Shown: one piece after another, positions 441 through 38,969 of the stretch
Numbering within the stretch: the first letter of the stretch is position 1
Layout: each line of letters starts with the position of its first letter
NCBI GenBank assembly: GCA_041486955.1
Contig: JBGPML010000001.1
Span: forward strand, 1-42,342
Origin: Patescibacteria group bacterium
Lineage (GTDB): Bacteria; Patescibacteriota; UBA1384; 2-12-FULL-50-11; DASWYB01
Length of the DNA stretch: 42,342 nucleotides
Direction of reading: 5' to 3'
Program-made: the position numbers and the translations under genes
The notes under the pieces: generated by a model
What the model saw: only the letters and a program-made list of their open reading frames with translations
Databases searched by the model: none
Told to the model about the DNA's origin: nothing

Positions 441-477
441 TTCCGAAATTTAATTCGGAAACAGAAATCTCTTGTAA
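441..477 (+). other. 5' arm of 23S rRNA processing stem
   Basis: The segment ...GGAAACAGAAATCTCTTGTAA is complementary to 3699-3722 (TTACAAGAGATTTTCTGTTTCC) with one bulge. This is the typical RNase III-type stem bracketing a 23S. Confidence 0.7.
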
Positions 478-694
478 ATTAAGAGTATGTGGTGGATGCC
501 TTGGCACATATTGCCGAAGAAGGACGTCGCAGCCTGCGATAAGCCTCGGGGAGCTGGCAAGCAAGCTTTGATCCGAGGATTTCCGAATAGGGAAACCTAG
601 TCCAGCGAAATGCTGGATTGCTCTACGTTAATCGTAGTAGCGGGCACCGGCTGAACTGAAACATCTTAGTAAGCCGAGGAAAAGAAAATAGTAA

Positions 695-727
<33 letters not shown>

Positions 728-971
728 AAGCCCAAACCTGCACCCGCAAGGGAGCAGGGGTTGTAGGGTACACTTGTCTTTAATGACAGTTGATTGTGGC
801 GTGTTAGCAGAACGAGCCTGGAAAGGCCGACCAGAGTGGGTGATAGTCCCGTATGCGAAAACACAACACACATCGGTGTATACCTGAGTACCACGAAACA
901 CGTGCAATTTCGTGGGAATCCGCGGTGATCATGCCGCAAGGCTAAATACAATATGTGACCGATAGTGAACG

Positions 972-1002
<31 letters not shown>

Positions 1003-1054
1003 GGAACGGGGAGTGAAATAGTACCTGAAACCGCATACTTACAAGGAGTCGGAG

Positions 1055-1354
1055 CCCAGCACCCTGTGTGCTATACTTGCGAATATGTTTTACGTATATA
1101 TTCTCAAGGGCTCGTCTAATCCGTTGTTCTATATTGGTTTTACCACCAATTTGAATCAGCGATTGGAGCAACATAATAATCATAGCAACCCTTCAACAAT
1201 AAAAAGTGAAAATTGGCAATTAGTTTATTTAGAAGGCTATCAATACGAAAATGTTGCTCGTAATCGAGAGCGAATGCTCAAGCATTATGGAAAGGCTTGG
1301 CAAGCAATTAAGAAACGGATTAGCGAGGTAGAAAATAGTATTTAGGGTGCTGGG
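1055..1354 (+). other. intervening sequence / insertion capping 23S helix 25
   Basis: CCCAGCACCC (1055-1064) and GGGTGCTGGG (1345-1354) form a perfect 10-bp stem around 280 nt. Flanks GGAGC... and ...TGACGGCGTGCCTTTTG match the E. coli helix-25 neighbourhood. Confidence 0.7.
1085..1345 (+). CDS. small stand-alone GIY-YIG (URI-domain) nuclease encoded inside the 23S insert
   Basis: 86 aa. FYVYILKGSSNPLFYIGFTTNLNQRLEQHN fits the GIY-(~10 aa)-YIG plus R/E/H core of the short GIY-YIG family (COG2827-like). No SD. The stop codon overlaps the closing stem. Confidence 0.75.
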   Translation: MFYVYILKGSSNPLFYIGFTTNLNQRLEQHNNHSNPSTIKSENWQLVYLEGYQYENVARNRERMLKHYGKAWQAIKKRISEVENSI

Positions 1355-1854
1355 TGACGGCGTGCCTTTTGAAGAATGAGCCAACGAGTTAGCTAGGCGT
1401 GGCAAGCTTAAGGATTTTTGTCCGGAGGCGGAGCGAAAGCGAGTCCTAACAGGGCGATTAAGTCGCGTCTACTAGACCCGAAACCGAGTGATCTACCCAT
1501 GGGCAGGGCGAAGCGCAGGTAAAACTGCGTGGAGGCCCGAACCTACTGATGTTGCAAAATCAGGGGATGACCTGTGGATAGCGGAGAAATTCTAATCGAA
1601 CTCGGAAATAGCTGGTTCTCCTCGAAATATATATAGGTATAGCCTCATGTTAGCGTCCGGGGGTAGAGCTCTGAATGCTTGTATTGGGAGCAATCTCGAT
1701 TGAGCAATCAAACTACGAATACCGGTAACGCGTTGCATGGGAGTCAGACTGTGGGGGCTAAGCTCCATGGTCGAAAGGGAAACAGCCCAGACCGTCAGAT
1801 AAGGTCCCTAAATTCTAGCTAAGTGGAAAAGGAAGTGATCGTGCATAGACAACT

Positions 1855-1890
<36 letters not shown>

Positions 1891-3059
1891 TGCGTAACAG
1901 CTCACTAGTCAATTGCAAGGTCGCGCCGAAAATTTAACGGGGCTCAAGCTAGGTACCGAAGCTACGGACCCCGCACCCTCATGGGTGCTGGGTGGTAGAG
2001 GAGCGTTCTGTGTTGGCTGAAGCCGTACTGTGAGGTATGGTGGACGACACAGAAGTGAGAATGTTGGCATGAGTAACGATAAGTGGGGTGAGAAACCCCA
2101 CCACCGCAAGTCCAAGGTTTCCTCCGCAACGGTAATCGGCGGGGGGTTAGTCGGTCCTAAGGCGCAAGTCGATGGACAGCAGGTTAATATTCCTGCACAA
2201 CGGTGCGACTACCCGTAAGTGACGCATTTCAAAGTTTTACAGCACCTATGGCTATGTGTTGTAAGGTGGAGAGGTGACAGGAAAAGCTTACGAGAGCCTA
2301 TCACAGAGACCAACTTGGTTTATGATAGCGAGTAAATTTTGAGCGAAAACAGCGAACGAGTGAGGAAGCATAGTATCTTCTATGGTGACGAACTCTGAGT
2401 AGTTTGCAGCCAAAATTTACCGCTGATCGTATCAAGGATGGTTTGTGTGATAGGCTCACAACTACGCATTGTTTCCGTACCGCAAACCAACTCAGGTGGA
2501 CGAGGCGAGAAGCCTCAGGTGTTCGAGATAACCTTCGTTAAGGAACTCGGCAAAAAAACGGGCGTACCTTAGGTATATGCCCTGACCACGTAAGTGGTCC
2601 GCAGCAAACGATTTTCAGGCGACTGTTTACCAAAAACTTAGGTCTCTGCTAATCTCTAATGAGATGTATAGGGGCTGATGCCTGCCCAGTGCTCGCAAGT
2701 TACGGAGAGAGTTGACTTTCGATTTTTAATCGGAGGAGGACTTGAACTTAAGCTCGAGTGAACGGCAGCGGTAACTATAACCGTTCTATGGTAGCGAAAT
2801 TCCTTGTCAGGTAAGTTCTGACCCGCACGAATGGCATAACGATCTGAAAACTGTCTCAACGAAGGACTCGGTGAAATTACAATACCGGTAAAGATGCCGG
2901 TTACCCGCAACAAGACGAAAAGACCCCGTGGAGCTTTACTACAGCTTGTCATTGGGTTTGAATTTAACATGTGTAGCGTACGAGGGAGCTTCGGCGCCAA
3001 TGAAACACCTCGCTTGGTAAATTTAAACTCTTATCTGGATTCCGGAGACAGTGGCTGGT

Positions 3060-3105
<46 letters not shown>

Positions 3106-3243
3106 TTCAAAGGTACACTAGATACGGACGGAAATCGTATCGATAGTGCAAACGCATAAGTGTGCTTGACTGTCAGGCTTACAAGCCGAGCAGGTACGAA
3201 AGTAGGAGTTAGTGAACCGTGTCCGAACGAATGAAAGTCGGAC

Positions 3244-3285
<42 letters not shown>

Positions 3286-3309
3286 GCGCCCAATAGACCA
3301 CTTAGACGG

Positions 3310-3349
<40 letters not shown>

Positions 3350-3384
3350 AGTGAAGAAGCTCCCAAGGGTTTGGCTGTTCGCCA

Positions 3385-3419
<35 letters not shown>

Positions 3420-3698
3420 CGAGACAGTTCGGTCTTCATCTGTTGTGGGCGTTGAAGCTTGAGAGGGTCTGTCCCTAGTATGAGAAGACCGGGATGGACG
3501 AACCTCTGGTGTGCCAGTTGTACTGCCAAGTGCATTGCTGGGTAGCTATGTTCGGTTGGGATAACCGCTGAAAGCATATAAGCGGGAAGCCCGCCTCAAG
3601 ATTAGGCTTCGTTATGAGGGTCCTGGAAGACCACCAGGTTGATAGGCACTAGGTGTACGTGTAGCAATACATTTAGCCGCGGTGTACTAATAACCCCA

Positions 3699-3735
3699 TT
3701 ACAAGAGATTTTCTGTTTCCGATTAAGTTCCGGAA
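3699..3735 (+). other. 3' arm of 23S rRNA processing stem
   Basis: Complementary to 441-477 (see the 5' arm feature). Confidence 0.7.
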
Positions 3736-3815
3736 ACAACATTTTTGGAACCGTATATTTACCCTATAATCATCATCATTTCGAGCGGGATCAGCTGAGA
3801 GAAAGGGGGATTCCA

Positions 3816-4019
3816 ATGGCCGAGACCGTTGGAGCGATTTTTTTTGGAGTAATTTATGCAATCTTTGTGATCTTTGCCTGGTTTATTGTCGCAGAACCAT
3901 TAAAAGAAATATTCAGACCACTCACAAGGTTTGCAGACCCTAGCTCGCTGAAATTTGTAATTTTACTACTTCTCACCGGACTAGGAATATTTCTTTATAT
4001 TCTTATTGACCCGCAGTAG
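3816..4019 (+). CDS. 2-TM miniprotein (67 aa) in the 23S-5S spacer
   Basis: Internal ATG of track ORF 3639-4019, preceded by GAGAAAGGGGGA 5-6 nt upstream. MAETVGAIFFGVIYAIFVIFAWFIV...FVILLLLTGLGIFLYILI gives two hydrophobic helices. The upstream part of the ORF overlaps the 23S 3' end and was discarded. Confidence 0.5.
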   Translation: MAETVGAIFFGVIYAIFVIFAWFIVAEPLKEIFRPLTRFADPSSLKFVILLLLTGLGIFLYILIDPQ

Positions 4020-4105
4020 TACCGCGGGTCTCGCTCGAAGTGATGATGAAATCGAATCTTAATTCTTCCAAGCAGGGAGTTTGACATGAAAGGGAGGAAA
4101 CGAAC

Positions 4106-4297
4106 ATGACACCGTGGGTTCCAGTAATTCTGCTCGTCTTCGTGATCGCTTTCCTAGTCTTTACGCTTATCAAAAATATGAGGGCGACAACAGGAGAAGA
4201 AACCGAACAGTTCACGGTCGTAATTCTCTGCTTCGTGGGAATTGCCGCATGCGGCTTCGCTATACGGTATTTCGCCACCCAACTGCTTTCCCGCTGA
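4106..4297 (+). CDS. 2-TM miniprotein (63 aa) in the 23S-5S spacer
   Basis: SD GAAAGGGAGGAAA about 6 nt before the ATG. Two hydrophobic helices (WVPVILLVFVIAFLVFTLI, VVILCFVGIAACGFAI). A small hairpin CCCGCT/AGCGGG lies at the stop. Confidence 0.55.
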   Translation: MTPWVPVILLVFVIAFLVFTLIKNMRATTGEETEQFTVVILCFVGIAACGFAIRYFATQLLSR

Positions 4298-4332
4298 TGT
4301 TTAGCGGGCCCTACTTAGAGGAATTAAGATGT

Positions 4333-4397
4333 GTCATCGCGAGCGGAAGCATGGCGAGCTTAACCAGATTGCTTCGTCGATTACTCCTCGCAATGAC
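4333..4397 (+). other. nested two-helix RNA structure 20 nt upstream of 5S
   Basis: GTCATCGCGAG (4333-4343) pairs with CTCGCAATGAC (4387-4397) with one mismatch. An inner helix GAAGCA (4346-4351) / TGCTTC (4370-4375) sits inside it. Confidence 0.45.
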
Positions 4398-4416
4398 AGA
4401 CTATATAGAAGACACC

Positions 4417-4536
4417 GTGTTGGTGCTTAGAGCGGTGGGGGTACACCCCTTCCCATTCCGAACAGGACCGTTAAGCCCACCAGCGTCGATGATACTTGAG
4501 GCGCAAGCCTCTGGGAAAGTAGACCAGCGCCAACAC
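4417..4536 (+). rRNA. rrf: 5S ribosomal RNA
   Basis: 120 nt. GTGTTGGTG...CGCCAACAC forms the terminal helix. Conserved CCCATTCCGAACAGGACCGTTAAGCC and GGGAAAGTAGACC blocks are present. Confidence 0.9.
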
Positions 4537-4620
4537 AGTGTCTTTTATTTTGCCAAAATATATCCTAGCATGAATGAGTCGTCCACATCCGAACAGTTTC
4601 GCGTGAGAAGGGGGGGAAGT

Positions 4621-5064
4621 ATGTGGTCAGTCACTATCGCCAACTTTGTCTTGGGCATTATTGGTATCATGTTTGCTCGGGGACTCCAGCGAACGTGGCA
4701 AAATGCCTATCCAATGATTGTGGGTAAGAAATCTCTCGTCCGTGTTGGTCAGGCAATTGCCGTGGCGGTCGGAATCAATTCGTTGGTCGTGATTGAAGAG
4801 GCTCTTTATATTATTTTCAAGGGGCCAAGTGTGGTATTTTCTCTATGGCTCATTCCTATTACCACTATAACGGCTTCCCTCGGCTTATTCAGCGTCAGTT
4901 ATCTAAGTTACTGTCGTGTAAAAAACGATCTTCCGTTCGATTACCCGAGATGGTCAATGTCATACTTTGGTGAAGAGCTGACAATGAAACTATTTTTGAG
5001 TTTCGGAGTTATTGCTCTTTTATCCTGTCTTGTAGGATATATCTGGATCTTCTGGCCCGCATAA
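4621..5064 (+). CDS. hypothetical 4-TM membrane protein (147 aa)
   Basis: C-terminal part of track ORF 4114-5064. ATG 4621 is preceded by GAAGGGGGGAAG. An alternative ATG is at 4570. The N-terminal part of the track ORF runs through the 5S gene and is rejected. Followed by a good terminator. Confidence 0.6.
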   Translation: MWSVTIANFVLGIIGIMFARGLQRTWQNAYPMIVGKKSLVRVGQAIAVAVGINSLVVIEEALYIIFKGPSVVFSLWLIPITTITASLGLFSVSYLSYCRVKNDLPFDYPRWSMSYFGEELTMKLFLSFGVIALLSCLVGYIWIFWPA

Positions 5065-6989: not shown

Positions 6990-7029
6990 TAATAGAGAAC
7001 CTATCATACTATTAAATTGGAGCAGTAAT

Positions 7030-7179
7030 ATGACAATTTTGTCTGTCCCAATGGGATTTCCTTCGGTCATAAATCATGAAAAATTGATCAACGTTCCGCC
7101 GGCTGGCGGATTGGCTACGTTTCCTCATTTGTTAATGAGTTTCAACCAAAATTGTGAACAAATTCCTTTCCAAAATTAA
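7030..7179 (+). CDS. upstream small ORF (49 aa), copy A of a conserved SD+peptide element
   Basis: GGAG lies 7 nt before ATG 7030. The N-terminus MTILSVPMGFPSVINHE is paralogous to the small ORF at 37559-37624 (minus strand). It ends 18 nt before the SD-less gene at 7198. Coding status is uncertain. Confidence 0.4.
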   Translation: MTILSVPMGFPSVINHEKLINVPPAGGLATFPHLLMSFNQNCEQIPFQN

Positions 7180-7197
7180 TAGTATGATAAGTTCTGT

Positions 7198-8184
7198 ATG
7201 TCCTTAACTATTCCTAAGTGGATCCGGCCATCTATCCAAGCAATTGGTAGTGTGGTTCTTTTTATTCTCTTTATCACCTTTTTTTGGCGTGAACGTAACG
7301 AGCTATCTCATTTGCGGCAAATTGTGACAGGAGCCAATCTTTCATTTCTCTCTCTAGGGATTTTTTTAAGTCTCTTAACCATCTTTATCCAAGGGCTATT
7401 CTATCAGTCAACGCTAGCTATGCTTCATAAGGAAATTCCGTTTCGAGTCGCCCTCAGTACCTATTTAAAACGCTTTTTCTTAGGATCATTTATTCCTGCT
7501 GGCGCAACCGTTTCTCAATTTACATTTAGTGATGAGGCCGAAGAACATAAGGTTAACGAGCTCGAAAGCCATTTAGCCGCTGCTTTTTTTATTTTTATTG
7601 GCGCAATCGTCTATATATTGATTCTCTATCCCACCGCCCTCTATTCATATTTGACTGGACGATTAAGCGGCGCAGAAAGCCTCAGCAGTTTGATCTTAAT
7701 CATAATTACATTGCTGTTATTTATCGATTTCTTCATTCTCTTCGAACAACGAGGCGTGATTTTCACGCTCGCATCAAAAATACGCCCGAATGTACCGCGT
7801 TTTATCGCCTCATGGCGAAATCGCGCATTCAATCAAGAGGCTATGGCCCGGGCATTTCTTTATGCTGGTTTATATCAAGCCACCAGCATTGTGATCGTTC
7901 TGGTCACATTTCAGGCACTGAACTTGCCTGGCGATATTTATGTGGCACTGGTCTGTTATGTTACCACTGTACTACTCTTAACAATTTCGCCGGTGTTTCA
8001 AGGGATTGGGTTGGTAGAATTTTCGCTCGTCTATACCTTGCAGCGTTTCGGTTTTGAAAAGGATCAAGCGGTAGCTATTACCATTCTTTATCGTCTGTTT
8101 CAGTTATGGATTCCACTTCTGATTGGATTTATTGTCTATCTGCAAAGCAAAATTAGCGATTCATTGCAGAAGCCAAAAAACTGA
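7198..8184 (+). CDS. MprF-flippase-like / lysylphosphatidylglycerol synthase TM-region family membrane protein
   Basis: 328 aa, about 8 TM helices. Colinear with residues 1 to ~325 of the next gene, for example LKRFFLGSFIPAGATVSQFTF versus LKRFFVGSFIPAGFTVSQFTF and LYRLFQLWIPLLIGF versus LFRLFQLWIPFFIGF. Confidence 0.85.
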   Translation: MSLTIPKWIRPSIQAIGSVVLFILFITFFWRERNELSHLRQIVTGANLSFLSLGIFLSLLTIFIQGLFYQSTLAMLHKEIPFRVALSTYLKRFFLGSFIPAGATVSQFTFSDEAEEHKVNELESHLAAAFFIFIGAIVYILILYPTALYSYLTGRLSGAESLSSLILIIITLLLFIDFFILFEQRGVIFTLASKIRPNVPRFIASWRNRAFNQEAMARAFLYAGLYQATSIVIVLVTFQALNLPGDIYVALVCYVTTVLLLTISPVFQGIGLVEFSLVYTLQRFGFEKDQAVAITILYRLFQLWIPLLIGFIVYLQSKISDSLQKPKN

Positions 8185-8259
8185 ATTTCAGAGTCAGTTA
8201 GGACATAATGTTATGATTGTGTAAGATTTCGTTATGAATTACTGCGTAAATAAAATTCT

Positions 8260-10941
8260 ATGACATTCAATCAACCCAAAATGTATAAAGCCTTTTGGCA
8301 ATCGCTCATTGGAATTGTCTTAGTTGCTCTTTTCATTGCTTTTTTATGGCAGCAAAGACGAGAACTGTACAATTTAAAACTGATAATCTTACAGGCAAAT
8401 TATACCTATATGTTTTTAGGGGTAGCGATAACCGGGGCATACTTTCTGGCTCAAGGTTTGTTTTATCAGAGCTGTTTGGCATTGCTGCACCAGCACGTCC
8501 CATTAACCGATGCAGTTAAAATCTATTTAAAGCGTTTCTTTGTCGGATCGTTTATTCCGGCCGGCTTTACTGTTTCTCAATTTACATTTCAATCTGACTT
8601 AAAAAAATATTCTATTAACGAAACAGAGAGTAATTTTGCGTCAATACTCTATCTTATTCTAGGTGCAATAACCTACGTTGCTATATTAATTCCTACCATT
8701 GTTTACCTCATTTATGGCAGTCATCTTACCTCACTCGAGCAGTACGGTAGCTTGGGTTTTATTGTCGTTATTTTGTTTGTCAGTATAGAGTTTTATTCTT
8801 TTATTCGCGAAAAGGGTATTGTCTATCGCTTGCTTCGACGTCTGATCCCGAATCTGTCATCTTTTATGGCGTCGTTACGAAAGACGTCATTCAACCGAAA
8901 TGTATTGATTCGAGCCTTTGCCTATAGTTTTCTTGTTGATGTATTAAGTATTGTAACGCTTTTAATAACGTTTAAAGCCTTAAATATCGCTCCCTCGCTT
9001 CTGATCGCCACGATTGGCTATGTCCTCACCATATTACTTCTGAGCATTTCACCAATTTTTGAAGGAATTGGGGTGGTAGAAGTCTCTTTGGTTTATGTCC
9101 TCATTCAATTTAATGTACCAAGAGATGCCGCCATTGCAGCAACTCTTCTTTTCCGATTGTTTCAGCTGTGGATCCCGTTTTTCATCGGATTTTTCTTGGC
9201 TTTACGAAATAAAATTGAAACTTCATTTCAATATCTACCAGTCGTATTAGTATTCTTACTCGGCGTAATCAATATCGTCTCGGCAGTAAGCCCACCGTTA
9301 ACCCACCGGCTTGATTTTTTGGAAGAGTTTTTCTCGCTGGATTTCTTAGTCTACTCGCGAATATTTACGCTCGTGTTGGGCTTTCTTCTTCTCTATCTGG
9401 TTTATAATCTTATTCATCGCTCCTACCGTGCTTGGCAAGCGACCGTTATATTTACTCTCTTTTCGATTATTGGCCATCTTGTTAAAGGGATTGATTATGA
9501 AGAGGCTGTATTCGGAGTAATTGTTTTAATTTCACTTTACATCTATAGAAACCACTATCGAATTAAAAATAGTTTGAGTCGGGTCAGAAAGGGCATAGTC
9601 ATCCTATGGATGGGGTTTGCCTTCGCCATATTTTATGGACTAATCGGATTTTATTTTCTTGATAAGAAACAATTTGGCGAGACGTTTACCCTCGGCCAGG
9701 CATTCCATCATCTTATTCGTTTATATTTTGAGTTTGGTGATATTAGTTTACATCCCCACACAATGTTTGCGCGTCTTTTTATCGGTTCAATTTATGGTGT
9801 TGGAATATTTTCACTCCTCTATGGAATTATATCGATTTTTCAACCAACCTTACGTGCATATCAAACTATTCCAGAAGAATATGATAAAGCCCAGCGTCTG
9901 ATTCAATCGTACGGCCATAACAATCTCGATTATTTTAAATTATATTGGGACAAGTCGTTCTTCTTTTCATCCACCAACGACGCATTTATTGCTTATAAGG
10001 ACATTAACGGTTATGCTCTCGTCCTCGGCGATCCTGTCGGCAAAAATGAAACAGCCATTAAACGAATAATTGAAGAATTTGCCGCATTCTCTGAATCGGC
10101 TGGGCTGCGAGTGGCGTTTCAGCAGGTGAGTAGTGAATATCTTAAGTTATATAAGCAGTTAGAATGGAATTATTTCAAAATAGGAGAAGAAGCCGAAGTG
10201 CTACTCGGGAATTTCTCACTGGAAAAGCCCGAGTTTAAAGAATTTCGGTCTATTATCCGTCGATTTGAAAGGGAAGGATACCGTTATACGCTTCATACCC
10301 CTCCGGTTAGTGCTGGTCTGATTCAAAAACTCCACCAAGTTTCTGACGAGTGGTTATCGTTACCGTTTCGAACTGAGCGGATTTTTACACAAAGTATGTT
10401 TGAATCAAGCGCCTTGATGCAGACAAAGATAGCAACGGTTGAAGATCACGAAGGCCAAATTTTAGCTTTTATCAGCCTCCTTCCTGATTATGATCATGGA
10501 AAGGTCGCATTGGATATGATGCGTCGAAAAACCAAGGTTCCGAATGGAGTTATGGAATTTTTAGTTGTTCAAACGATTTGGTCTCTCCTGCAATCAGGGT
10601 ATACATCCTTCAGTTTAGGATTAGCGCCTTTGTCGGGTGTCGGAGATCAGGAAAACGCAGGGATCCCCGAAAAATCGCTTAAATTTTTCTATGATCATTT
10701 TAATAAAGTGTTCAGCTATAAAGGGCTGCGGCAATTTAAAGCTAAATTCGCTCCGGAGTGGAGTCCCCGTTATTTGGTGTATCGAAGTCAAATAGAATTA
10801 CCCACATTGGCTGTTGCCTCCGTTAAAGCTGGGCAGGTCGGGGGCTTTACAGCTTTTTTTGAAAGTGCCCTCAAGCATCGACTTCAAACGAAACATGCCA
10901 CTATGATGGAACGAATCCAAAACAAAGAAAATACCTCATGA
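8260..10941 (+). CDS. mprF: bifunctional aminoacyl-phosphatidylglycerol synthase/flippase (MprF-like)
   Basis: 893 aa. The N-terminal part is polytopic membrane region. The C-terminal soluble domain (DYFKLYWDKSFFFS..., AFIAYKDINGYALVLGDPVG, KGLRQFKAKFAPEW) matches the MprF synthase (DUF2156-type) domain. Confidence 0.88.
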   Translation: MTFNQPKMYKAFWQSLIGIVLVALFIAFLWQQRRELYNLKLIILQANYTYMFLGVAITGAYFLAQGLFYQSCLALLHQHVPLTDAVKIYLKRFFVGSFIPAGFTVSQFTFQSDLKKYSINETESNFASILYLILGAITYVAILIPTIVYLIYGSHLTSLEQYGSLGFIVVILFVSIEFYSFIREKGIVYRLLRRLIPNLSSFMASLRKTSFNRNVLIRAFAYSFLVDVLSIVTLLITFKALNIAPSLLIATIGYVLTILLLSISPIFEGIGVVEVSLVYVLIQFNVPRDAAIAATLLFRLFQLWIPFFIGFFLALRNKIETSFQYLPVVLVFLLGVINIVSAVSPPLTHRLDFLEEFFSLDFLVYSRIFTLVLGFLLLYLVYNLIHRSYRAWQATVIFTLFSIIGHLVKGIDYEEAVFGVIVLISLYIYRNHYRIKNSLSRVRKGIVILWMGFAFAIFYGLIGFYFLDKKQFGETFTLGQAFHHLIRLYFEFGDISLHPHTMFARLFIGSIYGVGIFSLLYGIISIFQPTLRAYQTIPEEYDKAQRLIQSYGHNNLDYFKLYWDKSFFFSSTNDAFIAYKDINGYALVLGDPVGKNETAIKRIIEEFAAFSESAGLRVAFQQVSSEYLKLYKQLEWNYFKIGEEAEVLLGNFSLEKPEFKEFRSIIRRFEREGYRYTLHTPPVSAGLIQKLHQVSDEWLSLPFRTERIFTQSMFESSALMQTKIATVEDHEGQILAFISLLPDYDHGKVALDMMRRKTKVPNGVMEFLVVQTIWSLLQSGYTSFSLGLAPLSGVGDQENAGIPEKSLKFFYDHFNKVFSYKGLRQFKAKFAPEWSPRYLVYRSQIELPTLAVASVKAGQVGGFTAFFESALKHRLQTKHATMMERIQNKENTS

Positions 10942-12200
10942 TCGTCGCCGATCTAGAAATTCATTCTAGATACGCCAGAGCTTGTAGCAAAAATCTTTCG
11001 GCAGCTGTTTTGTCACTATGGGCAAAACGGAAAGGGATTCATATTTTAAGCACCGGTGACATCACCCATCCACTCTGGCGTCGAGAAATGCGCAAGAATT
11101 TGATCGAGAAAGAGCCCGGTTTTTTTATATTGAAGGAAGATGCCGATCCGCCAGCTAGCGAAAAAAATGCCCCTCGGTTTGTTTTGGGTGGGGAAGTGTC
11201 GTTAATGTTTCGTCAGGGCGAAGTGAAGGGGCGACGCGTTCACCTGATATTTTTGATGCCATCATTCGAGTCAGTCGAGCGATTGGTTGCTCTCATTAAT
11301 GACAAGGGTAAATTGGCGAGTGACGGGCGACCTATCTTAAGCATGTCATGTCGCGATTTTACTGTGGCCTGTCGCGAAGCCGATCCAGAATGCATGGTCA
11401 TTCCCGCTCATATCTGGACGCCCTGGTTTGGCTTACTTGGGAGTAAGTCAGGCTTTGACAGTATCGAAGCCGCTTTTGGTGATCAGACACACTATATTAC
11501 CGCTTACGAAACGGGACTATCAGCTGATCCCTCGATGTGTTGGCGGGTCGATAGCCTCAACAAACGAGTCCTCGTTTCGTCCTCAGACGCCCATTCAGCT
11601 CCTAATATGATGCGGGAAGCGTTACTGCTGAATGGTGAAGTTGAGGATTATAGCTATACTCGGTTACTAGGGGCTTTATCAATTGTCGGTAATAGCGATT
11701 ATTTTGGTACTTTAGAATTCTTTCCCGAAGAAGGTAAATATCATGCTGACGGACATGCGGCGTGTCATGTCGTTCTTGAACCTGAAATGACGGATAAACT
11801 TGAAGGTCGTTGTCCGAATTGTGGTCAGATGATTACGATCGGAGTCAAGCATCGCGTTTTTGATTTAGCCAGTCACGAATCAGGTTATCGACCGGCCCAT
11901 GGCGGCCAAGTTGTCTATGCAGTGCCGCTTCAAGAGATTATTGCTGAAGCGTTAGGCAAAGGCAAACAGTCAAAAGCGGTGCAACAGTTATATCTTCGTA
12001 TGGTCGAGACAATCGCGCCAGAGTATGTTATTTTGCGAGAAGTTACTCAATTTCCCGACTGGGTTGATCAACGGGTTTCCGAGGGTATTAAAAAAGTCAG
12101 AAGAGGTGAGGTTCACGTCAATCCTGGTTATGATGGTATCTATGGTACGGTGAAGCTGTTTGAATCAAAAAATAAAGCAATGTCACTCTGGGAGGGCTAG
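10938..12200 (+). CDS. PHP-domain endonuclease Q-like protein (TIGR00375-type)
   Basis: 420 aa. ADLEIHSRYARACS, STGDITHP, IPAHIWTPW, ETGLSADPSM, SSSDAHS and EEGKYHADGH are present, plus the zinc ribbon GRCPNCG...GVKHRV and C-terminal PGYDGIYG. ATGA overlap with mprF. Confidence 0.85.
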   Translation: MIVADLEIHSRYARACSKNLSAAVLSLWAKRKGIHILSTGDITHPLWRREMRKNLIEKEPGFFILKEDADPPASEKNAPRFVLGGEVSLMFRQGEVKGRRVHLIFLMPSFESVERLVALINDKGKLASDGRPILSMSCRDFTVACREADPECMVIPAHIWTPWFGLLGSKSGFDSIEAAFGDQTHYITAYETGLSADPSMCWRVDSLNKRVLVSSSDAHSAPNMMREALLLNGEVEDYSYTRLLGALSIVGNSDYFGTLEFFPEEGKYHADGHAACHVVLEPEMTDKLEGRCPNCGQMITIGVKHRVFDLASHESGYRPAHGGQVVYAVPLQEIIAEALGKGKQSKAVQQLYLRMVETIAPEYVILREVTQFPDWVDQRVSEGIKKVRRGEVHVNPGYDGIYGTVKLFESKNKAMSLWEG

Positions 12201-12204
12201 ATAG

Positions 12205-12320
12205 AAATGACGAATTTAAAATGGCAAATGAAAAAACGAATTAATAATGAATCATTCGAATGGTTTCGTCATTCGTGCTTCGACATTGATTTGTCATTTG
12301 GGTTTAGGTATTCGTCATTT
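12205..12320. repeat. inverted/direct repeat cluster with core AATGACGAA / TTCGTCATT
   Basis: AAATGACGAAT at 12205-12215, TTTCGTCATT at 12264-12273, ATTCGTCATTT at 12310-12320. A degenerate copy TTGTCATTTG and a central palindrome CATTCGAATG are also present. Confidence 0.6.
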
Positions 12321-17321: not shown

Positions 17322-18683
17322 ATGCCTTTATCCTCTCTCGAACCGATTGTGAATCTAGCCAAACGACGAGGATTCGTTGTTGGATCAAGTGAAATTTATG
17401 GTGGGATAGCCTCGATTTTTGATTACGGTCCGCTCGGTGTGGAATTAAAAAACAACTTAAAACAGTTGTGGTGGAAAACGTTTATTCACCAACGTGACGA
17501 CATGGTGGGGATCGATTCGTCGATTATTATGCATCCGAGAGTCTGGGAGGCCTCAGGCCATTTAGAAAGCTTTACTGACCCATTAGTTGAATGCACTAAA
17601 TGTCATATGCGTTTCCGGGAAGATCATATGCCGGAAAAATCAGACGGAAAATTTTGGAAATGTCCTGAGGGGGGTGAACATCATTTTTCTGAGGCCCGAC
17701 AGTTTAACTTGATGTTCAAAACATTTCTAGGGGCGACCGAAGAATCAGCTAATATCGCCTATTTACGTCCTGAAACAGCCCAAGGCATGTTTGCGAATTT
17801 TAAATATGTTCTAGAAACAACGCGACAAAAGGTTCCATTTGGCATTGGTCAGATCGGCAAGAGTTTCCGTAATGAAATTGGATTAGGCAACTGGCTTTTT
17901 CGCTTACGCGAGTTTGAAATCGCTGAACTGGAATTTTTTGTCAAACCTGGCACTGACGAGGAATGGTTTGACCATTGGGTAGGGGCGTGGGAGCATTTTT
18001 ATGAATCAGTGGGAATCGACAAAGCCAATATTAAACGGGACGAAAAGTCGAAAGAGAGTTTGGCCCACTATTCAAAACGAACGATTGATATGCATTATCG
18101 ATTTCCTCACGGGTGGGATGAGTTAGGCGGAATCGCTAATCGAACGGATTATGATCTCAAGCGTCACATGGAATTTTCGGGTAAAGATTTAACCTATTTT
18201 GATCAAGAAACGCATGAAAAATTTGTGCCTTACGTTATAGAGCCTACCCAAGGGATTGATCGCTTATTTATTGCGGTATTATGTGATGCGTACCGAGAAT
18301 ACCCAGGTGGTCGCAAAAGTGATGATGCGGCAATGCCTGAGGAGAAAGAACCAACAGAAACCGATGTGGTTTTGCATCTCAAGCCATTCTTGGCGCCTTT
18401 TAAAGTTGCTGTCCTGCCACTCGTAAAAAAGGATGGTTTGGCTGAGCTCGGAAAGCAATTGGCCGAAGATTTAAGAAAATCTATGACCACATTTTACGAT
18501 GAATCGGGTTCGATTGGTCGACGTTATCGTCGGCAAGATGAGATTGGCACACCCTGGTGTATTACCTTGGATTATCAAACGAAGGAAGATAATACGGTGA
18601 CGATTCGTGATCGTGACTCGATGGAGCAAGTAAGAATTTCTACTTCCGAACTAAATCATTGGCTCGAAAGTCGTCTTGTATAA
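17322..18683 (+). CDS. glyQS: glycine--tRNA ligase (alpha2 dimeric type)
   Basis: 453 aa. RRGFVVGSSEIYGG, YGPLGVELKNN, YLRPETAQG, FRNEI and EFEIAELEFF are class II GlyRS motifs. An anticodon-binding C-terminus is present. Confidence 0.95.
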   Translation: MPLSSLEPIVNLAKRRGFVVGSSEIYGGIASIFDYGPLGVELKNNLKQLWWKTFIHQRDDMVGIDSSIIMHPRVWEASGHLESFTDPLVECTKCHMRFREDHMPEKSDGKFWKCPEGGEHHFSEARQFNLMFKTFLGATEESANIAYLRPETAQGMFANFKYVLETTRQKVPFGIGQIGKSFRNEIGLGNWLFRLREFEIAELEFFVKPGTDEEWFDHWVGAWEHFYESVGIDKANIKRDEKSKESLAHYSKRTIDMHYRFPHGWDELGGIANRTDYDLKRHMEFSGKDLTYFDQETHEKFVPYVIEPTQGIDRLFIAVLCDAYREYPGGRKSDDAAMPEEKEPTETDVVLHLKPFLAPFKVAVLPLVKKDGLAELGKQLAEDLRKSMTTFYDESGSIGRRYRRQDEIGTPWCITLDYQTKEDNTVTIRDRDSMEQVRISTSELNHWLESRLV

Positions 18684-18937: not shown

Positions 18938-19369
18938 ATGTTTCTTGGCGAATTCGAACATTCTATTGATGCAAAAGGGCGCTTGGCCATTCCGGTAAAA
19001 TACCGCAATGCTTTAGCCGATGGAGCAGTGGTAACACGCGGACTTGATAACTGTTTAACCGTTTATCCCAAAAAGGAATGGGAAAAATTAGCCGAACAGA
19101 TTGCCTCGTTGCCAATCACTGAACCAAATGCCAGGTCTTTTACGCGCCTCATGTTAGCCGGAGCCATGGATGTTGAGGCAGATAAACAGGGAAGAATCAT
19201 TTTGCCTGCTTATCTGCGCCAATATGCTGGGCTGGGCGCTAACACGATCGTGGCTGGACTGTATAACCGAATTGAAATCTGGGATAAGGCTAGATGGACT
19301 GAATACAGTCAGAATGCCCAGGCCAATTCTTCAGACATTGCGAGCCAGCTCTCGGAGCTTGGTATATAA
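18938..19369 (+). CDS. mraZ: transcriptional regulator MraZ
   Basis: MFLGEFEHSIDAKGRLAIPVKYR plus a second repeat DKQGRIILPAYLR (two SpoVT/AbrB-like halves). The track ORF starts upstream at 18881. ATG 18938 was chosen for the canonical MFxGE N-terminus and an AAAGGA SD. Confidence 0.92.
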   Translation: MFLGEFEHSIDAKGRLAIPVKYRNALADGAVVTRGLDNCLTVYPKKEWEKLAEQIASLPITEPNARSFTRLMLAGAMDVEADKQGRIILPAYLRQYAGLGANTIVAGLYNRIEIWDKARWTEYSQNAQANSSDIASQLSELGI

Positions 19370-19393
19370 CACCTTTACATGGCCTGTATCGAA

Positions 19394-25005: not shown

Positions 25006-25080
25006 AATGACGAAATCCAAATACCAAAATCTGAATCCAACGAGCCGATTTTCGTCATTTGGCATTTTGTATTCGTCATT
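25006..25080. repeat. AATGACGAA / TTCGTCATT inverted-repeat element between mraY and ftsW
   Basis: AATGACGAAAT at 25006-25016, GATTTTCGTCATTT at 25047-25060 (about a 13-bp stem with one bulge), and a third copy ATTCGTCATT at 25071-25080. Confidence 0.6.
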
Positions 25081-26211: not shown

Positions 26212-26252
26212 AATGACGAAACCCGATTATCGAATGACAAAATTCGTCATTT
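26212..26252. repeat. AATGACGAA / TTCGTCATT inverted-repeat element between ftsW and murG
   Basis: AATGACGAAA at 26212-26221, GAATGACAAA at 26232-26241, AATTCGTCATTT at 26241-26252. Confidence 0.6.
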
Positions 26253-34717: not shown

Positions 34718-37552
34718 CTATGGAGGAGTAACAGTATACTGTTTACTTGTTATCGTTGTGTTGCCAGTTTTATCCACAGGAATGAAAGTAATATAATTTA
34801 TGACGTTATTGGATAATCCATTGAGGGTTGTGGTCTGATTGTCTCCCGGGTGTGCGCTGACTGTCGCAATTTTAGCACCCTGAATACCGGGGGATTGGGA
34901 GGCGTATATGGCGACAGTGTTCAAATCACTATTCAAAGGATTGGTCCATGAAGCCTTAGCTTTCCCGCTTCCGTTTGGCGACAAACTAACGTTGGACACC
35001 TCGTTTGGCGGAGTGGAATCAGCTCCAACAAGAATCGTAATTTGAGTTTTCGCGCTGTGCCCATTCGTTGCTCTTATATAGGCTGAAATAACGTGAGGAC
35101 CAAGCGAAAGGTCGGCAGTGTCAAATGTGCTCGTGTACGGAGAGGAGGTATCGGTCGAATAGGGCTTATCATCGATAGCAAATTCAACTGAGCCAGTGCT
35201 GCCAGGAGGCATGGTCACCTCGGCTGAAACAGTAAAGATGCCTGAAACGGTTGAGTCACCTTCGGGACTGCTGATCAATATTTTCGGATCACTAAAGGTC
35301 AGATCGCATTTATCAGTTGGCGGATCGCTTGAGAGGCCGGCATTTCTTGCATAAGCCTGAACCGGACCTTCATAGGCTGGATTGTTCGGCTGTTCAGAAT
35401 GAACTTTCGTGTAGTTTCGTTCCTCAACCTCGTCGGTTGGAGTATCATCAGTCGCTAATTTACCATTACTTTTACAAACTTTAACGCGGACATGAACGTC
35501 ATCAAAACCATCAGGTCCTTGCCAAGGAGCAAATAAATCTTGAATAAGCTGTCCTGATGCCGGTGTTGGATTTTTGCCTGACAAGAAATCAACGGTTTTA
35601 CTCGTTACACTGTCTGGTCGCGTGAATCCCTCATTATCTTTCTTAGCCAGATATTTGGTCATAAAATCGTCCCAAATTGGGGCAGAAACAGTCGACCCCC
35701 CTCCATGATCCATTTCACTGCCGTCATTATTACCAGCCCATACTCCCGCTACGATTGATGGGGTATAACCTATCGTCCAGGCATCCTTAAAACCATTGGT
35801 GGTGCCTGTTTTAACGGCAACTGTTTTATTCGGTACCGTGAGGACGCCGAGAAGATTTCCAAAGGTCAGTTTCTTCGCGTTGATGTCGGATAGAATATCG
35901 CTAATCTCATAGGCAATCTCGGGTTTAATGACTTGTTTTGGTTCCGGCTTCCATTCGAAGAGAGTTTTCCCTCGACTATCCTGAATCTTGAGAATTGAAG
36001 TCAGTGGATTACGATCGCCATTATTGGCAAGAACGCTATACGCGGCGGTTAAGTCAACAAGTTTAACTTCTCCACCTCCAAGGGCCAGAGACAAACCGGC
36101 ATCTTTACGATCGTCTAATGTTGTAATCCCCATATTATGGGCATTTTTAATAAAGTTATCGATTCCTTCAATCTGTAAGGCTTTAACGGCCGGAATGTTA
36201 TATGAGTTGCCGAGAGCGTTACGAATCGTGAGCGGCCCGTGAAAACGTCCGTCAAAGTTATTCGGTTTATAACCATTAAAATCAGTTTGTACATCCCAGA
36301 CCACCGATCCAGGGTTCCATTTTCCTTCAAATAGTGTGGCATAGACAATTGGCTTGCCGGCTGATCCCGGTTGTCGTAACCCAGTGGCGACATTAAAGTT
36401 ACCTTCATGTTCTCGGTCAAAGTAATCAACTGATCCAACCATGGCTAACAGTTGTCCCGTTTTCGGATCAATCGCCACTAAACCGGCGTTGGAAGCTTTG
36501 GCACGAGGTAGTACCTTCGCTCCAACATTTTTCACCGCATCATCAGCCAAAGATTGAGCATCAAGGTCGAGGGTAGTGGTAACTCGTAATCCACCACGTT
36601 GAACGAGTTCTTCGCCATATTTTGCGACTAATTGTTCACGGACATACATGACAAAATGCGGGGCGGGGAAGTTGTCGCGTTTCTGGGCAAAATCCTTCGC
36701 GGCTAATGGAGTCTCTTTCTTGGCTTGATTAGCCTGTTCTTGGGTAACTGCTCCCGTTTTTACCATGTCGTCAAGTACTAAGTTTTTGCGCGCAATCAAG
36801 AGATCCACATGGTTGCCGTATGGTGAGTATCGAGTAGGTGATTGGGGGAGAGCTGCCAGCGTCGCTGCTTCAGATAGGGTCAATGGATGTTCCTTATCTT
36901 TGACTGACTTACCGTAATAAGCCTGGCTGGCTGCCTCAATACCGTAAATATTCGAACCATAAGGAATTTCATTCAAGTAAAGGGTAAGAATGTCGTCCTT
37001 TGAGTAGATTGATTCAAGTTCAAGAGAAAGAATAACTTCCTTTATCTTACGGATGACTGAACGTTTCGGCGAAAGGAGAGCATTTTTTACGTATTGCTGA
37101 GTAATTGTCGATCCCCCTTGCACTCCCTTTCCTGTAAGAGGACGGAAAATTACACCCCGAATCAGTCCACGAAAATCAATGCCGTGATGAGAGTAAAAGT
37201 TTTTATCTTCAATTGCCACAGTGGCTTTTTTACTGATATCTGGGATTTCATCAGCTTTAACCAGAATCCGACGTTCATCACCCGAAATATCATAAATCTG
37301 TTTACCATTACGATCGTATAAAATAGTTGATTCACTGGCCGAACGGGTACGAAGCTCGCCAGGTCGAGGTAGATCTTTAAAGTACCAAGCAAATAAACCA
37401 ATGCCTAAAATTATCACTCCAGCTGTAAAAATAATCCCTATTTTCAGGATTGTACGCCAGGTGATTTTTCGGAGTCGTAATTTGGGTAATTGAGCTTTCC
37501 GAAAGCGAATCGGGAAAGATCGTCGTACCCGAGTAACAAAAGGTTTAAACAT
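34718..37552 (-). CDS. class A penicillin-binding protein (glycosyltransferase + transpeptidase) with C-terminal Ig/FN3-like extension
   Basis: 944 aa. GT51 motifs EDKNFYSHHGID, GGSTITQQ and RKIKE. Transpeptidase motifs SAGK (SxxK), SYN (SxN) and KTGT. About 210 extra C-terminal residues are beta-rich. Confidence 0.93.
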   Translation of the reverse strand: MFKPFVTRVRRSFPIRFRKAQLPKLRLRKITWRTILKIGIIFTAGVIILGIGLFAWYFKDLPRPGELRTRSASESTILYDRNGKQIYDISGDERRILVKADEIPDISKKATVAIEDKNFYSHHGIDFRGLIRGVIFRPLTGKGVQGGSTITQQYVKNALLSPKRSVIRKIKEVILSLELESIYSKDDILTLYLNEIPYGSNIYGIEAASQAYYGKSVKDKEHPLTLSEAATLAALPQSPTRYSPYGNHVDLLIARKNLVLDDMVKTGAVTQEQANQAKKETPLAAKDFAQKRDNFPAPHFVMYVREQLVAKYGEELVQRGGLRVTTTLDLDAQSLADDAVKNVGAKVLPRAKASNAGLVAIDPKTGQLLAMVGSVDYFDREHEGNFNVATGLRQPGSAGKPIVYATLFEGKWNPGSVVWDVQTDFNGYKPNNFDGRFHGPLTIRNALGNSYNIPAVKALQIEGIDNFIKNAHNMGITTLDDRKDAGLSLALGGGEVKLVDLTAAYSVLANNGDRNPLTSILKIQDSRGKTLFEWKPEPKQVIKPEIAYEISDILSDINAKKLTFGNLLGVLTVPNKTVAVKTGTTNGFKDAWTIGYTPSIVAGVWAGNNDGSEMDHGGGSTVSAPIWDDFMTKYLAKKDNEGFTRPDSVTSKTVDFLSGKNPTPASGQLIQDLFAPWQGPDGFDDVHVRVKVCKSNGKLATDDTPTDEVEERNYTKVHSEQPNNPAYEGPVQAYARNAGLSSDPPTDKCDLTFSDPKILISSPEGDSTVSGIFTVSAEVTMPPGSTGSVEFAIDDKPYSTDTSSPYTSTFDTADLSLGPHVISAYIRATNGHSAKTQITILVGADSTPPNEVSNVSLSPNGSGKAKASWTNPLNSDLNTVAIYASQSPGIQGAKIATVSAHPGDNQTTTLNGLSNNVINYITFIPVDKTGNTTITSKQYTVTPP

Positions 37553-37558
37553 AAGAAC

Positions 37559-37624
37559 CTACTTCAGAAATATTTCATGATTTGTGACTGAAAGGAATCC
37601 CATGGGGGCAGTCGAAATTGTCAA
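37559..37624 (-). CDS. upstream small ORF (21 aa, TTG start), copy B of the conserved SD+peptide element
   Basis: GGAG lies 7 nt before the TTG. The peptide is (M)TISTAPMGFLSVTNHEIFLK. The stop TAG is 6 nt before the PBP ATG. About 82 percent nt identity to 7014-7086. Coding status is uncertain. Confidence 0.35.
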   Translation of the reverse strand: MTISTAPMGFLSVTNHEIFLK

Positions 37625-37670
37625 ATTCCTACTCCAATTTATTTTTGAGGTAGGTTCATCCTCCCTATCT

Positions 37671-37699
37671 ATTTTACTCGTAGCTTTGCAAGTTATCAA
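37671..37699 (-). promoter_or_regulatory. promoter candidate for the small ORF + PBP transcript (TTGATA-17-TAAAAT)
   Basis: On the minus strand, TTGATA is at 37699-37694 and TAAAAT at 37676-37671, with a 17-nt spacer. Confidence 0.55.
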
Positions 37700-37714
37700 T
37701 AAGCTGGGTATAAT
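37686..37714 (+). promoter_or_regulatory. tyrS promoter candidate (TTGCAA-17-TATAAT)
   Basis: TTGCAA at 37686-37691, 17-nt spacer, TATAAT at 37709-37714. It overlaps the divergent minus-strand promoter. Confidence 0.65.
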
Positions 37715-37760
37715 CTGAGGTAGTATTTCAGGTTTAGCTAGCAACACCGGAGCACATTTC

Positions 37761-38969
37761 ATGCACTTACCAAATGCCTCATTATTGCACCGCGGGGTAC
37801 TCGAAGTTATTGATGAGTCTCACCTCAAGAAAAGACTTTTATCAGGAGAAAAATTACGGATTAAATTGGGCATTGATCCAAGTAAACCAGATCTCCATAT
37901 TGGTCATGCCGTGCCGCTCAGAAAGATGCGCGAGTTTCAAGATGCCGGACATTTGGGTGTCCTTATTATTGGCGACACAACAGCTCAAATTGGTGATCCA
38001 ACCGATCGATCAGAGGCAAGAAAGATCCTTTCACCTGAAGAAGTTAAACAAAATGCTGCCGGTTATCTTGATCAAGCCTATAAAATTATCAACAAAGATA
38101 AAACCGAAGTCCATTGGCAATCAGAATGGTTTGATTCCTTTACCCTACGCCAAACCATGGAGCTCCTAGCCTCTACTACGGTCAATCATCTTTTATCTCA
38201 TGAAACATTTGCGGCTCGACTGAAAAGCAATGCTCCGTTTCATATGCACGAAATGATCTATCCCTTATTACAAGGGTATGATTCGGTGATGGTTAAATCC
38301 GACGTCGAATTAGGTGCGAGTGATCAAAAGTTTAACATTCTCATGGGGCGGACCATTCAACGGGCCCATAATCAACCGGAGCAGGATGTCGTGATTTTGC
38401 CTTATCTCCCGGGAACAGATGGACAAGCCAAAATGTCCAAAAGTCTCGGTAATACAATTAACTTAAATGACACGCCTGAAGATATGTTCGGTAAAGTAAT
38501 GTCAATTCCGGATAATTTAATTATGACCTATTTTGAACTCGCAACCGAGATAGATGAGGAAGAGATTGCTGATATTGAACAGCAGCTGAAGCAATCGACA
38601 ACTAATCCCCGTGATATAAAAGAAAAACTCGCCAAAACGATTGTGACAGAATATTATGACGCTTCTTCTGCTGATCAAGCCGCGACAGCATTCGACTCGG
38701 TCTTTCGACGCAAAGAAGTTCCGGAAGATATCGAAGAATTGAAATTATCACCAATGAACTATGATTTAATCGATATCCTGGTTAATAGAATAAGTTTGGT
38801 GACGAGTAAAAGCGAAGCCCGCCGACTCATTGAACAAGGTGGCGTAAAGAAAAATAATCAGGTTGTTACTGATATTTCCGAAATGGTTACCCCAAATGAC
38901 GGTCAGACAGTTGTTATCCAGGTGGGTCCGCGTCGCTTTGTTAAAGTGACTTGGAGTCGAGATTCATGA
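37761..38969 (+). CDS. tyrS: tyrosine--tRNA ligase
   Basis: 402 aa. HIGH motif DLHIGHAVP, KMSKS motif present, GDPTDRS, and a C-terminal S4-like domain (SKSEARRLIEQGGVK). Confidence 0.93.
   Translation: MHLPNASLLHRGVLEVIDESHLKKRLLSGEKLRIKLGIDPSKPDLHIGHAVPLRKMREFQDAGHLGVLIIGDTTAQIGDPTDRSEARKILSPEEVKQNAAGYLDQAYKIINKDKTEVHWQSEWFDSFTLRQTMELLASTTVNHLLSHETFAARLKSNAPFHMHEMIYPLLQGYDSVMVKSDVELGASDQKFNILMGRTIQRAHNQPEQDVVILPYLPGTDGQAKMSKSLGNTINLNDTPEDMFGKVMSIPDNLIMTYFELATEIDEEEIADIEQQLKQSTTNPRDIKEKLAKTIVTEYYDASSADQAATAFDSVFRRKEVPEDIEELKLSPMNYDLIDILVNRISLVTSKSEARRLIEQGGVKKNNQVVTDISEMVTPNDGQTVVIQVGPRRFVKVTWSRDS

Follow-up and report, generated by a model that had tools for sequence, protein, structure and literature searches.

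In the coat-replicase region of phage MS2 and in mok-hok, translation of an upstream open reading frame (uORF) unmasks the start of the next gene, so that the two are coupled by termination and reinitiation. ERIC and the Rickettsia palindromic elements (RPE) are palindromic intergenic repeats similar to the Correia elements of Neisseria. Coupled translation by means of a uORF occurs in bacteria (PMC11260477, PMC5972666). For instance, M. tuberculosis possesses uORF-coupled genes behind B12 riboswitches (PMC11260477). In genes 38 and 25 of phage T4 the ribosome-binding site (RBS) is split, and a hairpin between the Shine-Dalgarno (SD) motif and the AUG restores a functional spacing (PMC3014915). 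The Correia repeat-enclosed elements are composed of inverted repeats plus a core and are substrates of RNase III (PMC2649163). Here we describe a hairpin cassette that is present twice, as copies A and B, in a stretch of 42,342 nucleotides (nt) from a Patescibacteria group bacterium (contig JBGPML010000001.1), hereafter the window, to which all coordinates refer. This cassette is a lineage-specific insertion that forms a discrete hairpin, with a closing stem that covaries between copies and an SD-led open reading frame (ORF) inside it, and it is located before two envelope-related transcription units: copy B precedes the gene of a class A penicillin-binding protein (PBP) and copy A precedes an MprF-type lipid-modification operon.

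Structure of the two copies

A previous sequence-only reading of this DNA had pointed to copy B as a conserved small ORF, coupled to the PBP gene through its stop codon, and had indicated a paralog at 7014-7086. This paralog is real, since each half of the common motif has exactly two occurrences in the window, where 0.00 are expected, and both copies share 84% identity over 69 nt (BLAST). The features of copy B, as well as the PBP gene, are read on the minus strand. The parts of the two cassettes are the following:

37555..37657, minus strand: whole cassette of copy B, 103 nt, with an inverted repeat at both ends; missing from the orthologous loci
37640..37657, minus strand: 5' arm of copy B, GAACCTACCTCAAAAATA; inverted repeat I7, 18 nt, 89% complementary, with pair probabilities of 0.8-0.99
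37632..37640, minus strand: internal SD AAATTGGAG of small ORF B; GGAG at 37635-37632, 7 nt before the TTG
37559..37624, minus strand: small ORF B, 21 codons; TTG at 37624-37622 and TAG at 37561-37559; in frame with the PBP ORF
37555..37572, minus strand: 3' arm of copy B, TATTTCTGAAGTAGGTTC; covers the stop of the small ORF plus the 3 sense codons before it; the arm ends 2 nt short of the PBP ATG
6997..7194, plus strand: whole cassette of copy A, 198 nt; 5' arm core 6997-7014 (extended 6992-7041) and 3' arm core 7177-7194 (extended 7147-7199)
6992-7032 with 7159-7199, plus strand: arms of copy A, 41 nt, 78% complementary (inverted repeat I1)
7033-7041 with 7147-7155, plus strand: additional arms of copy A, 9 nt, 100% complementary
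7014-7022, plus strand: SD of copy A, the same AAATTGGAG 9-mer as in copy B
7030-7179, plus strand: small ORF of copy A, 49 codons; stops TAA then TAG
within cassette A, plus strand: copy-A-specific part of about 90 nt, with a GC hairpin at 7096-7109

Folding pairs the conserved GAACCUA, located 5' of the small ORF, with the UAGGUUC that directly precedes the PBP AUG. The resulting stem is composed of 18 bp in copy B, and the equivalent pairing in copy A reaches about 50 bp. In the thermodynamic ensemble, the pair probabilities of the stem range from 0.8 to 1.0 in both copies (0.85-1.0 in copy A), and the arm duplexes have energies of -15.4 kcal/mol (copy B) and -37.6 kcal/mol (copy A, full arms). 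The window (42 kb) contains 15 inverted repeats with arms of at least 16 nt; I1, the one of copy A, is the longest and ranks first, and I7, the one of copy B, ranks seventh. The leader of copy A folds with z = -6.2. SD use and start accessibility were computed on 34 called genes from 40 kb of this genome, among which the -20 to -2 region of the copy A gene, with 0.06 unpaired, is the most occluded one.

The arms of the two copies have changed in a coordinated manner. When they are registered on GAACC/GGTTC, 33 of the 36 cells are paired and five pairs (positions 8, 10, 11, 14 and 16) are changed on both sides, whereas control registers in which the 3' partner is slid by 1-3 columns show only 31-44% pairing and 0-2 double changes. 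Between copies, the arms differ at 14/36 positions and the cassette core at 11/69 (Fisher p = 0.015). Since pairing is preserved together with five double changes, the slid controls are low and the arms have diverged more than the core, it is the pairing of the ends rather than their sequence that appears to have been kept. On the same comparison, the core sequence seems to be under some constraint.

The similarity between copies had also been extended upstream of the small ORF, to the motifs AATAGA and GAACCTA. The latter belongs to the conserved pairing arm. The former is probably coincidental and forms part of the ancestral promoter of copy B, because the orthologous locus L003 also presents TAAAATAGA. 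Beyond the cassette, homology between the flanks of the two copies (promoter and PBP 5' coding region) does not exceed that of shuffles, and a similarity between the interior of copy A and the PBP start, hinted at by a global alignment, was dismissed as chance. Both copies show the same orientation relative to the downstream gene and end 2-3 nt from its start codon.

The copy-A-specific part contains a 16-nt GC-rich palindrome, TCCGCCGGCTGGCGGA, at 7095-7110. An identical palindrome is found in the same-genome sequence L056 (19674-19689), about 8 kb past the end of the window and just after a gene coding for 73 amino acids. It may be a small repetitive extragenic palindromic (REP)-like or terminator hairpin nested in copy A.

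Comparison with orthologous PBP loci

The neighborhood of the two copies is composed of the following features:

34718..37552, minus strand: class A PBP gene, 944 amino acids, with Transgly, Transpeptidase and Big_7 domains (PF00912, PF00905, PF17957); ATG at 37552
37660..37665, minus strand: GGGAGG, presumed ancestral PBP SD, 2 nt upstream of the 5' arm and at a distance of 107 nt from the ATG
about 37664, minus strand: predicted transcription start site (TSS) of the PBP gene, placed from the -10 spacing alone
37671..37699, minus strand: PBP promoter-like site; -35 TTGATA at 37699-37694, 17-nt spacer, -10 TAAAAT at 37676-37671; 10/12 match in a consensus scan
37686..37714, plus strand: tyrS promoter-like site, TTGCAA-17-TATAAT, with a 14-bp overlap with the PBP promoter
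37761..38969, plus strand: tyrS, 402 amino acids (PF00579, PF01479), divergent from the PBP gene and with its own GGAG SD
7198..12200, plus strand: genes 3' of copy A, coding for an LPG_synthase_TM protein (7198-8184), an MprF-like protein (8260-10941) and a 420-residue protein (10938-12200)

The MprF-like protein contains LPG_synthase_TM and LPG_synthase_C domains. The best matches of the PBP come from the Patescibacteria group and Candidatus Berkelbacteria (about 48% identity), and the nearest relative is only 71% identical.

The two divergent promoters that had been read from the sequence, TTGATA-17-TAAAAT on the minus strand and TTGCAA-17-TATAAT on the plus strand, were both recovered by the consensus scan, which detected 4 promoter-like sites against 1.0 expected. 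Their overlap is also real, and this arrangement is ancestral, since it is present at 5/5 orthologous loci. The loci compared at the PBP start (L001, L002, L003, L054 and L055) carry PBP orthologs with 64-71% identity whose starts align with the N-terminus of the PBP. All five keep the divergent tyrS-PBP synteny and orthologous back-to-back promoters (TTGCTA-17-TAAAAT and TTGCAC-17-TACAAT, with a similar spacer), and the ATTATA...TTG(C/A)TA layout is conserved in relatives. The PBP leaders of these loci are only 0-32 nt long and, on direct reading of the intergenic sequences, contain no cassette. Locus L054 looks leaderless (TAAAAT-7 nt-ATG). BLAST of the element against three relatives gave no match, and the exact arm pattern, searched in 55 loci including L054 and L055, was found only in same-species loci. 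Conservation of the element upstream of PBP orthologs was rejected, as these five loci do not have it.

In copy B the order of elements is promoter, AGATAGGGAGGAT, the 103-nt cassette (37657-37555), TT and ATG. The in silico removal of 37657-37555 leaves GGGAGGATTTATG, that is, GGGAGGAT followed by TT and ATG, which is an ordinary SD-led short leader. Because the five orthologs keep the promoters but not the cassette, the latter seems to have been inserted in this lineage, 2 nt upstream of the PBP ATG. Relative to these orthologs, it is an insertion of 103 nt between the ancestral promoter and SD, on one side, and the PBP ATG, on the other. No target-site duplication was found at either copy: the flanks are AT/TT in copy B and GA/TG in copy A, with no direct repeat at any plausible boundary. 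The context of copy A is not conserved in relatives, where two LPG_synthase_TM homologs (37-41% identity) are located in a different gene context and have no leader.

The absence of a convincing SD for the PBP had been taken as a sign that its translation may depend on the small ORF. This absence holds true beside the ATG, but a perfect GGGAGG, displaced by the insertion, is present at 37665-37660, just outside the 5' arm. As an argument for coupling the missing SD is weakened, because only 13/34 called genes carry GGAG, GAGG or AGGA at -5 to -18 and several, in which a TATAAT box is located 6-7 nt from the ATG, look leaderless; with 21/34 genes (about 60%) devoid of SD, its lack does not by itself imply coupling. 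Many genes present a TATAAT-like box 4-7 nt before the ATG and no SD, such as those starting at 17322, 28818 (minus-strand locus view) and 25059, which suggests that leaderless mRNAs are frequent in this genome. Structured leaders of 112 nt (copy B) and 200 nt (copy A) are exceptional in it. An internal promoter yielding a leaderless PBP mRNA was rejected, since the consensus promoter scan found no such site.

The small ORF

Both copies have their own RBS and start, consisting of GGAG, 7 nt and TTG (copy B) or ATG (copy A), and at the sequence level the AAATTGGAG 9-mer and its spacing are identical. The sequence-only reading was right in its description of copy B: the 9-mer (37640-37632) is followed after 7 nt by the TTG (37624-37622), and the 21-codon ORF, translated as LTISTAPMGFLSVTNHEIFLK and then the stop, ends in a TAG that is 6 nt (GTTCTT) away from the PBP ATG at 37552; coordinates and translation agree. 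The distance from the uORF stop to the main ATG is 6 nt in copy B and 18 nt in copy A, in frame both times. Despite their different lengths (21 and 49 codons), both ORFs stop inside the 3' arm, and in both copies the last codons and the stop are inside the conserved stem that abuts the main start codon. As far as sequence can tell, this layout of small ORF and stem corresponds to the classic anatomy of translationally coupled genes.

The sense frame is the sole frame open in both copies. In shuffled sequences, the uORF of copy A remains open across the 93 nt specific to this copy in 16% of cases, and the whole uORF in 4.5%. Antisense ORFs of 38-44 residues exist in both cassettes (37584-37718 on the plus strand and 7012-7128 on the minus strand). 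They are likely artefacts, since their translations are unrelated and one of the frames is interrupted by stops in the other copy. That the real gene could be an antisense ORF, or one in another frame, was rejected because all the other frames have stops in at least one copy. Annotation pipelines call the 49-residue ORF of copy A a hypothetical protein, and in copy B they annotate only the antisense ORF of 38 residues.

The idea of a conserved small ORF does not survive at the protein level. A HMMER scan of 1.84 billion representatives returned the own entry of the copy A ORF and one weak match (E 1.6e-4) to a repetitive 1876-residue protein, which was judged spurious, and nothing but the copy A ORF itself was recovered when 5.8 billion clusters were searched with a profile. 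A conserved small protein was rejected on these grounds. Since billions of proteins include no homolog and synonymous changes between copies are not in excess, the peptide sequence itself is probably unimportant. Conservation is equally high in the non-coding SD region and in the "coding" part.

Proposed mechanism

We tentatively propose that the cassette belongs to the 5' leader of both transcription units, and that uORF-driven unmasking of the stem, followed by reinitiation, ties PBP and lipid operon expression to the leader ORF. This could well be the case, although it falls short of being probable; as a mechanism it is the most plausible one, still unproven. The leader would be transcribed from the upstream promoter, and the closed stem would hinder the direct entry of ribosomes at the main AUG. 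Ribosomes would instead load at the internal SD, most easily during transcription. Translation of the uORF would melt the 3' arm, and termination beside the main AUG would be followed by reinitiation. The expression of the PBP and the lipid operon would then be tied to the translation of the leader ORF and to the stability of the stem, and not to the sequence of the peptide.

The two copies could differ in how ribosomes gain access. In copy A the stem covers the own SD and AUG of the uORF, so loading would have to take place during transcription, while the 3' arm has yet to be made, and expression would be limited to the early rounds of translation. Only copy B could have a second initiation route, of the split-RBS type, in which the closed hairpin would bring GGGAGG within 2+2 nt of the AUG. 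This split-SD geometry, with a spacing restored to within the functional range of 4-11 nt, is found in copy B only (GGGAGG 37665-37660, stem 37657-37640/37572-37555, UU, AUG), and the sequence of copy A has no upstream SD of this type. The presence of GGGAGG in the PBP mRNA is uncertain, because this motif is at or next to the predicted TSS.

Different observations weigh against coupling. With respect to structure, the whole fold of copy B is no stabler than shuffles (z = -0.23), its start region ranks only 9th in occlusion among the 34 genes when longer upstream context is included, and the long stem of copy A also buries the SD and AUG of its own uORF. With respect to expression, the predicted TSS of copy B falls in or next to GGGAGG, and both the transcription and the translation of the leader are inferred only. 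The covariation of the stem is derived from only two sequences, and template-switch (quasipalindrome) mutation can mimic compensatory changes without selection. Neither is there a sign of selection on the peptide: the copies differ by 3 synonymous and 6 non-synonymous changes, for which 23% synonymous changes are expected (p = 0.34).

The distribution of the element also weighs against coupling, since it is known as two sequences from one species. A codon-degenerate pattern of the 3' half had 0 matches in 185,579 GTDB species genomes as well as in viral contigs and 10 matches, attributable to chance, in JGI metagenomes, and a pattern of the 5' half gave 27 chance matches in the same 185,579 species genomes, in unrelated phyla. 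The collections used for pattern scans exclude the source genome, so these scans speak only to relatives with a recognizable copy. The window sequence is also present in two NCBI metagenome-assembled genomes (MAGs), two JGI metagenomes and several Logan assemblies, and over copies A and B the contigs examined, which come from eight samples, show 100% identity. This lack of strain polymorphism leaves the coupling proposal without a population signal.

In its widest form, the proposal would turn the cassette into a portable "translation adaptor", that is, a mobile hairpin with its own RBS and short ORF that lands directly 5' of start codons and, in a bacterium whose mRNAs are mostly leaderless or have short leaders, converts genes into structure-gated, uORF-coupled ones, placing PBP1A and the MprF-type operon under common translational control. 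We regard this generalization as unlikely. The general importance of the element is limited unless more copies or relatives appear, because it is known from two copies in one uncultured species.

Alternative explanations

The main rival of coupling is a passively tolerated palindromic repeat: a selfish or neutral intergenic element of the miniature inverted-repeat transposable element (MITE), Correia, ERIC or RPE type would have landed in two 5' leaders, and its SD and ORF would be incidental. The hairpin would only aid tolerance, which could be achieved by loop-out or by RNase III cutting of the stem to give an mRNA with a short leader. This explanation agrees with the discreteness of the unit, its bounding inverted repeats and the empty site in five relatives, but not with the lack of a target-site duplication at both copies. 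The restriction of the element to one species and the lack of homologs in the scans point in the same direction, but only two copies exist in 55.7 kb. The TCCGCCGGCTGGCGGA hairpin inside copy A is found again at another place in the genome, which suggests that small palindromes move in it; however, the arms of the cassette differ through compensatory changes, which are unexpected for ends recognized by a transposase. A tolerated repeat would also account for the absence of peptide-level selection, but not for a core that is more conserved than the arms. Since short or absent leaders are usual here, cleavage of the stem would restore the usual form of the mRNA, and Correia elements share the inverted-repeat-plus-core layout, adjoin genes and are RNase III substrates (PMC2649163). 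Against this stand the common orientation of both copies, their ends 2-3 nt from a start codon and the in-frame uORF that stops in the 3' arm. On balance, we consider a tolerated repeat somewhat doubtful.

The two remaining explanations are less likely than either coupling or a tolerated repeat. In the first one, the core of about 70 nt would be a sequence-specific RNA or DNA site, either an aptamer or the target of a regulator, that co-regulates PBP1A and the MprF-type operon according to the state of the envelope, the open frame being a by-product. The conservation of the core at the nucleotide level (84% over 69 nt, above that of the arms, without an excess of synonymous changes) is compatible with such a site, as are the short palindromes that it contains (CCCATGGG and TCATGA), but the copies share no convincing internal structure, one candidate helix being broken in copy A, and no Rfam match is obtained up to E 10. 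Both targets act on the cell envelope, as this explanation would require; however, a riboswitch or a regulon operator would not usually be missing from all relatives, as the element is. We find a binding site quite unlikely.

A sensory leader peptide of the erm/cat type, in which stalling on MTI..PMGF.SV.NHE, for instance by an antibiotic, would hold the stem open and induce the gene, is very improbable: 12 of the first 17 residues are identical between copies and an SD-led short ORF does stand 5' of a stem masking the next start, but the differences fit the neutral coding expectation (3/9 synonymous against 23% expected), no homologous peptide exists in 5.8 billion clusters or 1.84 billion representatives, the conserved residues are about 15-45 nt (copy B) and more than 90 nt (copy A) upstream of the 3' arm, so that a stalled ribosome would miss the arm of copy A, fold predictions contain no alternative anti-stem pairing (no dedicated search for one was made), and the downstream genes are not classic resistance determinants.

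Other candidate identities were examined in databases. Rfam 15 gave only rRNAs above the gathering threshold in the window and nothing meaningful on either copy up to E 10, and a known RNA family was rejected for lack of a match. Integron attC-like core sites were also rejected, since by eye GTTRRRY does not match the ends. Phage and plasmid collections gave no match by BLAST. The same-genome sequence was extended beyond the window to 55.7 kb, and it contains no third copy of the cassette.

Other features of the genome

The 23S rRNA gene (468-3710) has 3243 nt, about 320 nt more than the Rfam model of 2925 nt, and annotation places in it an 86-residue ORF of the GIY-YIG (homing-endonuclease) type, at about 1085-1345. 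This suggests a putative insertion or intron in the 23S rRNA, of a kind common in bacteria of the Candidate Phyla Radiation (CPR). The 5S rRNA (4419-4535) follows about 700 nt after the 23S gene (gap 3710-4419), and pipelines call across it a "gene" of 255 or 316 amino acids (4114-5064) that is probably spurious.

A second palindromic motif, AATGACGAA(T/A)...TTCGTCATT, forms inverted pairs in three intergenic regions (12206-12319, 25006-25080 and 26212-26251), located after the MprF-type operon, before ftsW and between ftsW and murG, respectively. It has 11 matches against 5.7 expected and could be an operator or a terminator-like repeat. Two JGI contigs (Ga0534154_0000063 and Ga0534154_0000028) both end at about 19160-19370, where the contig of the NCBI MAG is continuous; a 32-nt inverted repeat is found at this assembly break (19162-19233).

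Comparison with known systems

If uORF-driven unmasking and reinitiation hold true, the cassette would be a clean natural case of a short insertion that rewires how translation of an essential cell-wall gene is initiated, and it would be among the first cis-regulatory leaders described in Patescibacteria (CPR), about whose gene regulation almost nothing is known. This hypothesis is directly testable thanks to the compensatory stem and the stranded SD.

As in the described systems of uORF coupling, the cassette has a short SD-led ORF whose stop is close to the next AUG (6-18 nt in the cassette), and this AUG is beside or within a stem whose 3' strand would be read by the uORF ribosome. In contrast to them, in the cassette it is the extreme 5' end of the leader that pairs with the masking strand, which places the whole uORF in one hairpin; in addition, the cassette is seemingly a recent insertion with two copies, and its coupling is inferred from sequence. 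Like T4 genes 38 and 25, copy B presents a strong SD (GGGAGG) far upstream and a fold that leaves 2+2 unpaired nt to the AUG. However, the intervening RNA has 103 nt, while that of T4 has 22-27 nt; it carries its own SD and ORF, and the upstream SD is at the predicted 5' end of the transcript.

The erm/cat translation attenuation systems also have a short leader ORF 5' of a stem that hides the start of the regulated gene. In the cassette, by contrast, there is no conserved arrest peptide, no alternative pairing was noticed, and the leader ORF runs through the masking strand instead of stalling before it. With Correia-type repeats the cassette shares a size of 100-200 nt, terminal inverted repeats around a conserved core and a position beside gene starts, where it would be co-transcribed as a long hairpin and could be a substrate of RNase III. 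It differs from them in having no TA or other target-site duplication and in the only two copies seen, as well as in its arms, which covary between copies, and in its SD-led ORF, which ends at the start codon of the host gene. In kind, the cassette is related to structured uORF-containing leaders and to palindromic intergenic repeats; in sequence, it is new.

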